Sequence record: NC_018835.1 | Length of the DNA stretch: 64,000 nt | DNA from: Escherichia phage NJ01 | Strand: one strand, 5' to 3' | In this document: positions 15,495 to 49,323 of the stretch, piece by piece | Layout: every line of letters begins with the position of its first letter | How positions within the stretch are numbered: position 1 is the stretch's first letter | Notes under the pieces: model-generated | What the model was told of the DNA's origin: nothing | Seen by the model: only the letters and a program-made list of their open reading frames with translations | The model's database searches: none | Position numbers and translations under genes: made by a program

Positions 15495-15503
15495 TAATGT
15501 ATA
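15495..15503 (+). promoter_or_regulatory. TAATGTATA promoter-like element
   Basis: Exact TAATGTATA 33 nt upstream of ATG at 15537, RBS AAGGAGGA between. Confidence 0.45.
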
Positions 15504-41794: not shown

Positions 41795-41803
41795 TATACA
41801 TTA
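41795..41803 (-). promoter_or_regulatory. TAATGTATA promoter-like element (minus strand)
   Basis: + strand TATACATTA; 59 nt upstream of SSB-like start; overlaps a TATAAT hexamer. Confidence 0.4.
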
Positions 41804-41866: not shown

Positions 41867-41875
41867 TAATGTATA
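41867..41875 (+). promoter_or_regulatory. TAATGTATA element on + strand, divergent from 41795-41803
   Basis: Exact TAATGTATA; no + strand ORF downstream. Confidence 0.3.
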
Positions 41876-45167: not shown

Positions 45168-47012
45168 TTAGTGTGTATGCATCCAGTTAAGTCCAATCTG
45201 ACAATCAGATGCCAGAGGACATTCCATGTTCAAATACTCACCAGCTTTCTTAACGCAAAGCTCAGTGTGCTCTTTGAGTTTCTGTACATCATTACGATTC
45301 ACTGAGAACTGGCCCTCATCGTGCATGTCAATTACCTTCGCACAGCGAACTCCATCTTTCTCAATCCACTTGTTAAGGAACATCATAGCATATTTCATAA
45401 CAACAGCACCAGCGCATTGCAGGAGTGTGTTAAGAGCTTTATGAACCATAACCTTACCAGTGGCATCTCGTCTCATTGTAATCTTACGACCATCAACACC
45501 AATCAAGTATCCTTGAGCAGCTTTCTCTGTCATACGATCAATGAGGATTGCAATACATGGGTTCTCTGCCAAGAATCGTGCTCGCATCACTGAACCTTCG
45601 TCAGCCCCACCACCTACAATTGAACCGAGCTTAGCGTCACCAGCACCATAGTTGAATGCGTAGATAAACGTCTTAGCGTTGTCACGAGTAGGAAGACCAG
45701 CAAGTTTCTGGTTGTGGGAGTGAATATCACCTTCAAGGAGGATATCACGATACATAATAGCAGAAGCTAAACCACGCTCTGCCAGAGCTTTCTTAGCTGG
45801 ATTGTTCTCTTCAATTGCTTCAGCAAGCATATCCCTACACTCTTTAATGAGGTAGTGTGCAAGCATACGCAATTCTAATCCAGAACCATCATACCCTAAG
45901 AATACTTCTTTACCAGCGGGTATGTAATATTTGTAAGCACCTACAGGTTTATCTTTCTTCCCCGGCTTACCTTTCTCGTAAATTACGTTAGTACCTTTTC
46001 GTATATAACAACCATCAGGAACAACGTTAGTAATAACGAAAGGACGAGAGTGATCACCATCTGAGTTACAGTCAGACTCAAACAAACCGCGACACTCATG
46101 ACCAAACAAACCACGGGAGGGAATATTAACCACGATACGATGTTTGAATCGAAAAGTCGGCGTAGCACAGCTGTTAGCTTCTGCCGAAAGTTTACCATCT
46201 TCGCGTTCCTTTGCTATGAGTCCACTGATAAGACCTAGCCTGTGAGCCGCTACAACGCGTCTCTTAAGCAAACTTCCGACACTCCCTAGCTCACCCCCTA
46301 ACCCTTCTTCAAGAGTCTCCTCGAGGTTTGTAGGAGCTGTAGGCCACTTGTTTGAGGTAGCTAGTGCTATCTTAATCTCATCAAAAGTGATAGGTCTACG
46401 TCGGTTAGGATTTAAACCTAAACCAAATACATAAGCCTTCATGTAGTTCTTAGTTTTAAACCTAAAATGCTTCTCTAAGAACTTCCTAATATCAGCGTCA
46501 ACCATCTCGGCTGTCTGCTTCTGTTTAGCATTACCTCTCATCCAAGCTGAATACCACGCTTGGTATGTTCCATACTTTCGCATATCTTTCTTGATTTCAA
46601 AAGTATTCCAAGGTTTCTTTGATACGTTAAACTCTGGAGGAAGAAAACCCTCATCCATAAGGGCTTCTTTAACTCGTGCATCTTTCGATGGGTCAAAGTC
46701 CACGTATTCAACACAGGTGAATGCTCCACCAATGTCTTCTCTCTTAAGACCAACTCTATCACAATAGGCTTGAGGCCACTTCTGTAAAGCTCCAGACTTC
46801 TTAAATGGCTTCATATAAGTAGAGCCATCTAATCTCATCTTAGGTAAGAGAGGAATCAGTTCTTTGTCAATATTAACAATAATCTCTTTAAGGAGGTGAA
46901 CATACCACCGAGCATTTCTTCGGTTGAAACTCACTCCGTGCTTCGCTTGCTTAGAGATTATATCAGCGACAGTCATCTCTGTCAAAAATGGGAGAGCGTC
47001 CGGGTTGCTCAC
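45168..47012 (-). CDS. DNA polymerase, family A (T7 gp5-like), polymerase domain only
   Basis: Motif A YDGSGLELRMLAHY, motif B RDNAKTFIYAFNYGAG, motif C VIDMHDEGQF; no exonuclease motifs in this ORF. Confidence 0.85.
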   Translation of the reverse strand: MSNPDALPFLTEMTVADIISKQAKHGVSFNRRNARWYVHLLKEIIVNIDKELIPLLPKMRLDGSTYMKPFKKSGALQKWPQAYCDRVGLKREDIGGAFTCVEYVDFDPSKDARVKEALMDEGFLPPEFNVSKKPWNTFEIKKDMRKYGTYQAWYSAWMRGNAKQKQTAEMVDADIRKFLEKHFRFKTKNYMKAYVFGLGLNPNRRRPITFDEIKIALATSNKWPTAPTNLEETLEEGLGGELGSVGSLLKRRVVAAHRLGLISGLIAKEREDGKLSAEANSCATPTFRFKHRIVVNIPSRGLFGHECRGLFESDCNSDGDHSRPFVITNVVPDGCYIRKGTNVIYEKGKPGKKDKPVGAYKYYIPAGKEVFLGYDGSGLELRMLAHYLIKECRDMLAEAIEENNPAKKALAERGLASAIMYRDILLEGDIHSHNQKLAGLPTRDNAKTFIYAFNYGAGDAKLGSIVGGGADEGSVMRARFLAENPCIAILIDRMTEKAAQGYLIGVDGRKITMRRDATGKVMVHKALNTLLQCAGAVVMKYAMMFLNKWIEKDGVRCAKVIDMHDEGQFSVNRNDVQKLKEHTELCVKKAGEYLNMECPLASDCQIGLNWMHTH

Positions 47013-47614: not shown

Positions 47615-47890
47615 TTAACCTTTTGGGAATGGCATTAAAGATTCCATAGCAGATTTAATTTCGCTATTGATTCGAGCATCTCGATAAGAGATAAACTTAC
47701 CTTTGCTATCTCGTAACATCACATGGGTTCTAGCTGTTACGTGGGGAAGTAATGTAATACTAGTTGGGATAGTGTCAATCCCTACAGAAAATTTGTCAAT
47801 AGTCTTGCTTTCACTTAACAGATAAGACCAAGTTTGCTTCGGATGGTTAGGGTATGTGTCTCGAATTTGAACCATAGCTAACTTATTCAT
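47615..47890 (-). CDS. small protein, member of tandem paralog pair
   Basis: Shares GKFISY...E...PFPKG with next gene. Confidence 0.45.
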   Translation of the reverse strand: MNKLAMVQIRDTYPNHPKQTWSYLLSESKTIDKFSVGIDTIPTSITLLPHVTARTHVMLRDSKGKFISYRDARINSEIKSAMESLMPFPKG

Positions 47891-47891
47891 A

Positions 47892-48143
47892 TTAAACTCC
47901 TTTAGGGAATGGGATGAGGTTTTCTACTGCAACACGGAACTCTTTCTCTACGTTTTTATTCTTATAAGAAATGAATTTACCATCAGCCCCACGGAGGATT
48001 ACGTTAGTACGAGCTGTTTTTGGGTTATGACCAATCTGGTTTGCAATAATATTAGCAATGCCGTGGTTATTGGTAAATTTCCATTTAACCATACGATTGT
48101 TAGACATTACATCAATGATATTTACAGATTTTACAATAGACAT
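47892..48143 (-). CDS. small protein, member of tandem paralog pair
   Basis: LRGADGKFISYKNKNVEKEFRVAVENLIPFPKGV vs LRDSKGKFISYRDARINSEIKSAMESLMPFPKG. Confidence 0.45.
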   Translation of the reverse strand: MSIVKSVNIIDVMSNNRMVKWKFTNNHGIANIIANQIGHNPKTARTNVILRGADGKFISYKNKNVEKEFRVAVENLIPFPKGV

Positions 48144-48177
48144 ATTTATTACCTAAGAAGTTTAATTTGGTTTATAT

Positions 48178-48206
48178 AAAAGAAAAGGCCACCCATTTGG
48201 GTAGCC
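48178..48206 (-). terminator. rho-independent terminator (minus strand)
   Basis: Minus strand GGCTACCC-AAAT-GGGTGGCC followed by TTTTCTTTT. Confidence 0.45.
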
Positions 48207-48211
48207 TTATA

Positions 48212-48529
48212 TTACGATGAGCTTAAAGCTCCTTTTCGTGCTCCAGCCGCTTTTCCAGCTCGATCACCACTTTTGCCGCCGTTTGAACGGTTTGAGCTGA
48301 CTGATTCAACACGTAAGTTGCTTGACGCATTAGAGCCTCCAGACTTGACAGCTCGTTTGTGTCCAACATCTTTACCTCTGACAGCAGCTTTTCCATCGCG
48401 CTTTTCAACGATGCGACGTGCACGGTGGCGCTGAGCATCTCCGCTCTTGCTACCAATTCCCGTTTCACCACGGGCAATTGCGGTACGTCTTTCTTGTGCA
48501 TAATCTCTCTTTCCTACATGGTCTGCCAT
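48212..48529 (-). CDS. basic low-complexity protein (105 aa)
   Basis: ATG at 48529 with AAGGAG RBS at 6-nt spacing; TAATGTATA element 37 nt upstream. Confidence 0.45.
   Translation of the reverse strand: MADHVGKRDYAQERRTAIARGETGIGSKSGDAQRHRARRIVEKRDGKAAVRGKDVGHKRAVKSGGSNASSNLRVESVSSNRSNGGKSGDRAGKAAGARKGALSSS
48223..48501 (-). CDS. alternative-frame ORF (92 aa, helical) fully inside 48212..48529
   Basis: Own ATG with AGGAAAG upstream; which frame is expressed is unresolved. Confidence 0.3.
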   Translation of the reverse strand: MHKKDVPQLPVVKRELVARAEMLSATVHVASLKSAMEKLLSEVKMLDTNELSSLEALMRQATYVLNQSAQTVQTAAKVVIELEKRLEHEKEL

Positions 48530-48565
48530 TTAGAACTCCTTAATATATCAGTATACACTAAGGAG

Positions 48566-48574
48566 TATACATTA
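48566..48574 (-). promoter_or_regulatory. TAATGTATA promoter-like element (minus strand)
   Basis: + strand TATACATTA between PhoH stop and next gene start. Confidence 0.45.
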
Positions 48575-48585
48575 TAAGTTACTGT

Positions 48586-49323
48586 TTAAGCTTTCTTTTC
48601 CATTGCTTTAACAATCGCCTTACAGAAACCAGAACGAACAATGTCATCTGATTCCCCATCTACTATCTCAGCGAACTCATACAGATCATGTTCATCAATA
48701 AAGTTAGTAGCCCAAGTAAGACCACTCTCACGACCACGCATATCATGCTGGTTAGTATCACCCATGCAGAACAGCTGAGAGGTCTCTCCCAATCGAGTCA
48801 TGATTGAGAAGGCTTCATCTTTAGTGGTGTTCTGGAACTCATCTACGATAACAATAGCATCATTGAAAGAACGACCACGGAGATACTCCAGAGGTACGAA
48901 CTCAATATTACTGTTACCGAGCTGGCATTCATAGAACCCTTTACCATATCGCTGAGTAATAACATCAATGATAGGCATCAAATATGGTTCAAACTTCTCA
49001 CGCATCCCTCCCGGAAGCAACCCAAGAGAATTACCCATGCCGACCGAAGGGCGACTCAAGATAATCTTCTGAATCTTACCACTCTTCAGTGCATCGATAA
49101 CCGTGGAAGTGATTACAAAGGTCTTACCACAGCCCGCAGGAGCGTCTGTGAACACAACTTGTTTAGTCTTGATAGCATTGAGCAGTTCAGACTGGAACTG
49201 GTTCTGAGGGACTACAGGCTTTGCTAAAACCACCTCTTCAAACTCGCGCTTACCCTTACGAGTGACAAGTGCTTCCCGACGAAGGTCTTTCCGTGATTCT
49301 TTCCGTGATTGACGACGACTCAT
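48586..49323 (-). CDS. phoH: PhoH-like ATPase
   Basis: Walker A TDAPAGCGKTFV, Walker B-like IVIVDEFQN. Confidence 0.75.
   Translation of the reverse strand: MSRRQSRKESRKDLRREALVTRKGKREFEEVVLAKPVVPQNQFQSELLNAIKTKQVVFTDAPAGCGKTFVITSTVIDALKSGKIQKIILSRPSVGMGNSLGLLPGGMREKFEPYLMPIIDVITQRYGKGFYECQLGNSNIEFVPLEYLRGRSFNDAIVIVDEFQNTTKDEAFSIMTRLGETSQLFCMGDTNQHDMRGRESGLTWATNFIDEHDLYEFAEIVDGESDDIVRSGFCKAIVKAMEKKA

Follow-up and report, generated by a model that had tools for sequence, protein, structure and literature searches.

Escherichia phage NJ01 (NC_018835.1) carries, in the 64,000-nt stretch analysed here (the window, whose positions are used throughout), two open reading frames (ORFs) of 105 and 92 amino acids (aa) on the minus strand, the shorter wholly nested in the +1 frame of the longer. 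A sequence-only reading of the window had described them as fully overlapping ORFs, each with its own Shine-Dalgarno (SD) sequence, and had left the choice between one spurious frame and a dual-coding locus; the coordinates of both are exact in the ORF list. By comparing the locus with its relatives, we find that the 105-aa frame is a genuine gene, encoding a small and very basic (pI 11.5) protein that is probably of the His-Me-finger (HNH-like) type. The inner frame is probably a functional overprinted gene as well, an unannotated gene within a gene that is kept in the kuravirus-like clade and whose translation we infer; retention of the ORF, depressed synonymous divergence and amphipathicity of the predicted product together favour dual coding in this clade.

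The window belongs to a phiEco32-like (Kuravirus) podophage of E. coli, the region sharing 98% identity with Escherichia phage 172-1 and ~92% with phiEco32 (Gordonclarkvirinae, Kuravirus). The locus lies in the middle-gene replication module, with a PhoH-like gene on one side and, after four small genes, a family-A DNA polymerase gene on the other. Its features are as follows:

48586-49323, minus strand: PhoH-like gene (ORF list)
48566..48574, minus strand: TAATGTATA, phiEco32-type middle/late promoter motif (phage sigma factor gp36), by motif match
48536..48541, minus strand: Shine-Dalgarno AAGGAG of the main gene, 6-nt spacer to the ATG, anti-SD duplex -8.7 kcal/mol
48212..48529, minus strand: main 105-aa ORF, starting with ATG (ORF list)
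48509..48515, minus strand: AGGAAAG, weak SD-like motif of the inner ATG, AGGA core 10 nt from the ATG, duplex -4.9 kcal/mol
48223..48501, minus strand: inner 92-aa ORF, starting with ATG, +1 frame of the main ORF
48407..48448, minus strand: 42-nt block (main codons 28-41) invariant at all positions, synonymous ones included, in 12 orthologues from three genera
48290..48367, minus strand: H-N-N motif region of the main protein, V55-G56-H57 ... G64-G65 ... N71-L72 ... N80 (family alignment)
48185..48208, minus strand: intrinsic terminator hairpin of 10 bp (6 GC, loop of 4), then TTCTTTTAT, with the T-tract tail TTCTTTTATA; ends the transcription unit
45168-47012, minus strand: family-A DNA polymerase gene (ORF list)

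The element upstream of both ORFs and the terminator downstream, also part of the sequence-only reading, are both in place. Upstream of the transcription unit, aTAATGTATAct at 48575-48564 fits the gp36 promoter motif tAATGTATAtA, which in phiEco32 promoters that depend on gp36 precedes the start of transcription by 6-8 nt (PMC4281155). TAATGTATA occurs six times in the window against 0.69 copies expected, a count reached in none of 100 shuffles, and a promoter scan of 47900-48800 gave no sigma-70-like promoter. These features suggest a short middle-class transcript running from a gp36-type promoter to the intrinsic terminator. Within 48549-48574 (minus strand) the heptamer TGTATAC is present twice, TAATGTATACtccttaGTGTATACtg, the second copy lying at about the expected transcription start.

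The host gene and its HNH-like product

The main protein is the orthologue of phiEco32 gp58 (phi32_58, 99% identity) and of SU10 gp056, which resemble it in length, in position after PhoH and upstream of the polymerase, and in the gp36-type motif upstream, with no material difference in the main frame. It matches the PHROG 4590 profile at E = 1.2e-40 (residues 4-101 on profile positions 2-99 of 100), has 85 homologues of ~100 aa in a database of 5.8 billion proteins, and is found by tblastn in 252 phage records from Escherichia, Pseudomonas, Aeromonas, Proteus, Salmonella, Cronobacter and Pantoea phages and one cyanophage. The order PhoH, main gene, polymerase is common to the window, phiEco32, SU10 and metagenomic relatives; in the Bruynogheviruses of Pseudomonas the gene stands between polymerase parts I and II, and it is near a DNA polymerase gene in most contexts examined. 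The SU10 protein (CDS56, 10.83 kDa) has been detected by mass spectrometry with two peptides and 18.3% coverage. Its tryptic peptides SGGSNASSNLR and VESVSSNR cover 19 of 104 residues, that is 18.3%, and by this coverage figure they are presumably the two detected. The hint that the 105-aa frame might be the spurious one was therefore wrong, and AAGGAG does stand at good spacing before its ATG (48541-48536).

Calling the product low-complexity was likewise misleading, since it bears a conserved nuclease-type H-N-N motif, with Ser at the positions of the HNH zinc cysteines. Among 37 diverse members of the family, R8, E13, R34, R38, H57 and N80 are invariant, G64-G65 nearly so, and N71 and L72 at least 90% conserved. 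The structure model places a strand at 53-57, a second at 72-76 and a helix at 77-82. The likeness to His-Me finger nucleases comprises a length of ~100 aa, a catalytic-type His ending strand 1, Asn-Leu in strand 2, an Asn in the next helix, a GG turn and a modelled beta-beta-alpha arrangement; among known structures the protein comes closest to two small HNH nicking enzymes that stand alone, Gme HNH (4h9d) and phage GVE2 HNH (5h0o). At the sequence level, 16 of 37 relatives weakly match HNH (PF01844) and 10 of 37 HNH_3 (PF13392), with a best E of 2e-5. The window protein itself has no Pfam match even at E <= 1 and reaches only E = 0.06-0.15 with the PHROG HNH families, and a profile of the family gave no meaningful match among PDB sequences. 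A His-Me finger lacking the zinc ligands would be a fold-level assignment for a widespread "hypothetical protein", which we infer to bind or nick DNA during replication.

The residue before the catalytic His is usually an Asp that serves as a metal ligand in HNH enzymes. Most members of the family have it (VDH), and all Gordonclarkvirinae have Gly instead (VGH; codon 56, 48362-48364, minus strand), so the protein in this group may only bind DNA and may be catalytically inactive. For the LUZ24-like phage tf, site-specific single-strand nicks at TACTRTGMC, made by a nickase, have been described (PMC3517423). By analogy with its best structural match, an HNH nicking endonuclease, the HNH-like protein of this family could be the nickase behind the nicks in LUZ24-like genomes. 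In Aeromonas phage LAh_9 (L014 389-418) an in-frame stop interrupts the gene at codon 10, and only a 3' fragment of it is annotated, which points to a pseudogene or to a sequencing error; the gene is intact in the sister phages LAh_8 and 4_4572.

Retention of the inner frame and its predicted product

The inner ORF is open and begins with ATG in every Gordonclarkvirinae orthologue (97 records) and in seven further loci of our collection (L025, L026, L028, L029, L030, L111 and L112) with main-frame identities of 66-82%; at or above 66% identity within the clade, 26 of 27 unique sequences retain both the open frame and the ATG. The seven deep metagenomic lineages with an open frame differ from the window by 0.5-0.65 synonymous differences per site. 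Retention was evaluated by a GY94-type codon simulation on the tree, with site-specific amino-acid constraints, with the window as the root and with synonymous change calibrated so as not to exceed that observed. The probability that all lineages stay open was 3e-4 to 3e-3 for seven lineages and 5e-5 to 5e-4 for nine, and that of keeping the inner ATG was 0.08-0.2; the lineages share ancestry, and P values per lineage are not independent. A general avoidance of off-frame stops in the phage was considered and rejected: the ratio of observed to expected +1 stops in 39 long window genes is 1.09, which also shows the null to be calibrated. An earlier test by conditional codon resampling (joint P about 1e-3) ignores mutational paths and shared branches and was superseded by the tree-based model.

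The codons that hold the frame open can be specified. Stops in +1 need an NTA or NTG codon, and Val, Ile and Leu codons before a codon with initial A or G always end in a pyrimidine in the open clade. NTA codons are used there where harmless (GTA for V5; TTA or CTA for L72 before C) and never where a +1 stop would result. In those clades of the family whose +1 frame is broken, stop-making codons occupy 24% of such risk contexts, giving ~2 stops per gene. Transition bias as the source of the pyrimidine-only changes at risk codons was rejected, transversions outnumbering transitions at four-fold sites.

The inner ORF encodes a predicted protein of 92 aa and pI 6.8, modelled by AlphaFold2 (AF2) as a two-helix hairpin (helices 9-44 and 51-91; mean model confidence, pLDDT, 73, from a shallow alignment). 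Its sequence includes the predicted peptides DVPQLPVVK, AEMLSATVHVASLK, MLDTNELSSLEALMR, QATYVLNQSAQTVQTAAK and VVIELEK. Synonymous codons were permuted within the gene, which keeps the main protein and its codon usage, and against this null the helical hydrophobic moment of the inner product is in excess (P = 0.004 for the window sequence; below 0.05 in 7 of the 10 open lineages, which are not independent, and in none of 8 broken ones). Its depletion in Pro and Gly was not counted, as it cannot change under such permutation. The similarity of the +1 products by BLOSUM scores relative to simulation (z = 3.1-3.6) was also set aside as uninformative: the +2 frame, which holds no ORF, shows an equal excess per codon, both frames reading the same slowly evolving nucleotides, so that this excess gives no frame-specific support to a functional inner gene.

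Synonymous divergence and the competing explanations

Codon-level conservation in related phages, which had been suggested as a check on the overlap, does show depressed synonymous divergence. In comparison with phiEco32, the synonymous divergence (dS) of the main gene is 0.11 against 0.34-0.84 for PhoH and other neighbours, a two- to threefold reduction, and the proportion of synonymous differences (pS) in the gene relative to its flanks has a median of 0.62 over 63 pairs within the open clade. Three pairs with a broken frame have ratios of 0.90 (Salmonella phages, p = 0.22), 1.32 and 2.30. An Aeromonas pair (L146/L147) was excluded as a control because its two members are too similar (pS about 0).

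An alternative explanation, which we regard as unlikely though with appreciable weight, is that only the 105-aa gene is functional, the inner frame being a compositional by-product kept by ancestry, with its divergence lowered by gene conversion driven by homing endonucleases. The composition of the main protein indeed predisposes to long +1 ORFs. It is rich in Gly, Ser, Lys, Arg and Ala and has only 12 NTN codons among 104, so that stops are almost absent from the +1 frame; the length of the inner ORF in the window genome alone is accordingly unremarkable (P = 0.12 by synonymous resampling with phage codon usage, P = 0.05 by codon shuffling; not significant). About 30% of the distant family members are stop-free in +1, mostly without an ATG, which marks the whole family as compositionally predisposed.

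Several further observations tell, with those just given, against a functional inner gene. Its ATG, present in all members of the clade, is formed by the conserved Tyr10-Ala11 codons (TAT-G) and is forced by Tyr-Ala or Tyr-Glu in the main frame whenever the Tyr codon is TAT; its stop TAA is formed by the Leu102-Ser103 codons (TTA-A), so both ends are by-products of conserved main-frame residues. The ATG is only 28 nt downstream of the strongly initiated main ATG. Of the two SD sequences that had been proposed, the one before the main gene stands, and that of the inner ORF holds only weakly, its motif being replaced by AAGGCG or AAGGCT 12 nt upstream in Suseptimavirus and Nieuwekanaalvirus. The inner product has no family or domain match in PHROG or Pfam and no homologue outside the overlap. 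Its tblastn matches are confined to 97 E. coli/Shigella kuravirus-type records, with an identity that drops faster than that of the main frame, and its two database homologues (P0086 and P0087) are both alternative-frame calls. P0086 was rejected as independent support, because in its contig (L151) the main ORF runs into a scaffold gap, hence the frame call; P0087 comes from a contig of 593 nt. No annotation of the inner ORF is present in the phiEco32-group records examined, and the database searched in the SU10 proteomics consisted of 125 annotated coding sequences that do not include it. Ribosome profiling of this phage group is not known to us, no literature search aimed at it having been made.

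The same side of the balance holds a loss of the frame in one lineage and the mosaic state of the genomes. Frame-disrupting changes in one frame only, which the sequence-only reading had named as evidence against dual coding, are present in L027, where the inner frame has four internal stops and the main frame is intact and apparently unharmed (77% identity in the homologue search, 72% over the full alignment), and in many distant orthologues, where the inner frame is broken by 1-7 stops. As it is the 92-aa frame alone that is broken there, the inner frame is dispensable for the family, which does not show it to be spurious in the window clade. Adjoining genes of these mosaic genomes can differ strongly in divergence (for example pS of 0.02 next to 0.5) and homing-endonuclease genes flank the locus in many relatives, so that recombination or gene conversion could lower dS; the pS controls with a broken frame number only three pairs.

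What the by-product explanation leaves unaccounted for is the specific pattern of codons. The simulation was calibrated on the gene's own synonymous change, so that low divergence is already allowed for, and still gives 5e-5 to 3e-3 for the retention of the frame. NTA is used where harmless and never in a context that would create a +1 stop, for which transition bias is no explanation. The broken-frame clades of the same family show neither stop avoidance nor depressed dS, and an excess of amphipathicity is not predicted by this explanation. Between one spurious frame and dual coding, the evidence therefore favours the latter, short of proof.

A different explanation would place the constraint in the nucleic acid: an RNA structure, a regulatory or packaging signal, or a site for a homing endonuclease or other nuclease within the gene would restrict synonymous sites, the open +1 frame being incidental. 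This explanation has some appeal in that the invariant synonymous sites cluster in a single block (codons 28-41 fully and codons 42-59 nearly invariant) rather than spread over the inner ORF, in that homing endonucleases are known to target conserved sequence and several are inserted beside the main gene, and in that the complete transcript, with its terminator, is more stably folded than shuffled versions of it (z = -3.5). Folding of 96 nt around the invariant block (z = 0.09) and of the whole coding region (z = -0.98) is nevertheless no better than that of shuffled sequences, a consensus fold of 11 orthologues has no covariation (covariation term +0.13), and no Rfam family reaches threshold. 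Such an element would also leave unexplained both the context-specific avoidance of +1 stops along all 92 codons and the amphipathic periodicity of the product, and we consider it very improbable.

Under the favoured dual-coding explanation, a single transcript from the gp36-type promoter to the terminator would carry two genes in two frames. The inner one would be the less translated of the two, with ribosomes initiating internally where the sequence is rich in A and has a weak SD, and would yield a near-neutral amphipathic two-helix protein of 92 aa. The frame probably arose by overprinting on the almost stop-free +1 frame of the host gene, and selection would then have held it open in the kuravirus-like clade through: i) stop-avoiding codons, ii) slowed synonymous change, and iii) placement of codons for amphipathicity.

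The homologous frame in Pseudomonas phages and the surrounding genes

A parallel case is found in a Pseudomonas Bruynoghevirus-like clade (clade 2), where 12 of 13 lineages have the same +1 frame open, against a probability of 0.01-0.04 predicted from composition. L121-L124 and L078 belong to this open clade, as their sole +1 stop is the stop of the upstream gene. NTG makes up 38% of the Val, Leu and Ile codons before G and none of 21 before A, four-fold third positions are enriched in T (0.45 vs 0.32), and the gene has 0.46-0.58 of the pS of its flanks. The +1 product has a C-terminal transmembrane helix: in 10 lineages a 19-residue segment reaches Kyte-Doolittle (KD) values of 2.5-3.2, where the null gives 1.0 +/- 0.45 (P <= 0.002 for each lineage). 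Representative positions of this membrane ORF are:

L143, 1171-1483: +1 membrane ORF of a Bruynoghevirus
L020, 1471-1779: +1 membrane ORF of a Bruynoghevirus
L149, 2468-2783: +1 membrane ORF of a Bruynoghevirus

In most Bruynogheviruses the +1 ORF begins at a GTG that follows the stop codon of DNA polymerase part I by four codons, in the same frame as part I, a layout that suits coupling by termination and reinitiation, and it stops just past the end of the host gene; the basal members L048 and L019 share with the window the ATG derived from the Tyr codon. Annotation of the locus is inconsistent, with either frame called and rarely both: the membrane frame is annotated in Epa2 (gp26) and UFV-P2 (ORF33), the HNH-like frame in phages otherone, NV1 and Bjorn, and Ka1 is the only record with both (Ka1_36, "putative membrane protein"). 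According to the UFV-P2 paper, tf_29 of phage tf is similar to ORF33. We found no description in the literature of dual coding at the locus of this HNH-like gene.

The parallel strengthens the dual-coding interpretation of the window. The two inner ORFs share the frame of a homologous gene, strong stop avoidance and depressed dS, whereas that of the Bruynogheviruses starts elsewhere in most members, stops past the host gene and encodes a transmembrane helix; both a shared and an independent origin are possible. The predicted products differ in kind, soluble and helical in the window clade and membrane-bound in the Bruynogheviruses, a difference that belongs with the points against a functional inner gene given above. 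We tentatively propose, with rather less confidence than for the window gene itself, that the small HNH-like gene is a recurrent cradle of overprinting, in which at least two phage lineages, the phiEco32-like phages of E. coli and the LUZ24-like phages of Pseudomonas, may have made different functional proteins from the +1 frame.

Complete small ORFs nested in a longer gene and read from the same transcript are genetically proven in the Rz/Rz1 genes of lambda and the D/E genes of phiX174. The inner ORF of the window, a candidate gene, has the same nested, same-strand layout. Its product has no lipobox, signal sequence or transmembrane helix (maximum KD about 0.8) and is thus no analogue of a spanin or a lysis protein. 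The Bruynoghevirus ORF resembles phiX174 E in architecture, as a small single-pass membrane protein inside another gene. Overlapping genes as such are well known; what appears to be new is an unannotated case together with a different, membrane-type protein from the same frame in Pseudomonas phages. If the interpretation is true, ~100 sequenced phiEco32-like phages, including several that are candidates for therapy or belong to the BASEL collection, would carry one unannotated gene, and synonymous recoding of the main gene, whether to engineer or to attenuate a phage, may not be silent. The locus would then be a clean case, found in nature, of overprinting on a frame made permissive by composition, and the origin of two kinds of protein from one frame of one host gene would be useful for studies of gene birth and codon sharing.

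The surroundings of the host gene are variable. Free-standing genes for HNH, HNH_3 or Endonuclease VII proteins lie directly beside it in many relatives (Bas86, GAP52, Bas89 and two metagenomic contigs), and the locus looks like a hot spot of homing-endonuclease insertion, at which gene conversion may lower local divergence. Insertions of the homing-endonuclease type beside the main gene are located as follows:

L011, 31-411
L013, 1-375
L023, 684-1040
L027, 1830-2321
L024, 1841-2248

HNH endonuclease genes are also annotated inside the matched region of EcoN5, SGF2 and YF01, at positions whose exact values were not checked. Gene 59 of phiEco32 (L001 2352-2684), between phoH and gene 58, and the Cys/His-rich SU10 gp055 (L150 1397-1690), directly after gp056, are both absent from the window, so that the main gene is bracketed by breakpoints of insertion or deletion. 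Downstream, the genes at 47892-48143 (minus strand, 83 aa) and 47615-47890 (minus strand, 91 aa) are tandem paralogues, both with GKFISY and a C-terminal PFPKG; the 83-aa orthologue is called "autotransporter adhesin" in several records besides that of phage 172-1, apparently through an annotation error. Elsewhere in the window, two TAATGTATA copies form a divergent pair 64 nt apart (41795-41803, minus strand, and 41867-41875, plus strand), likely representing divergent gp36-type promoters, and the other copies lie at 15495, 27098 and 32326 on the plus strand.

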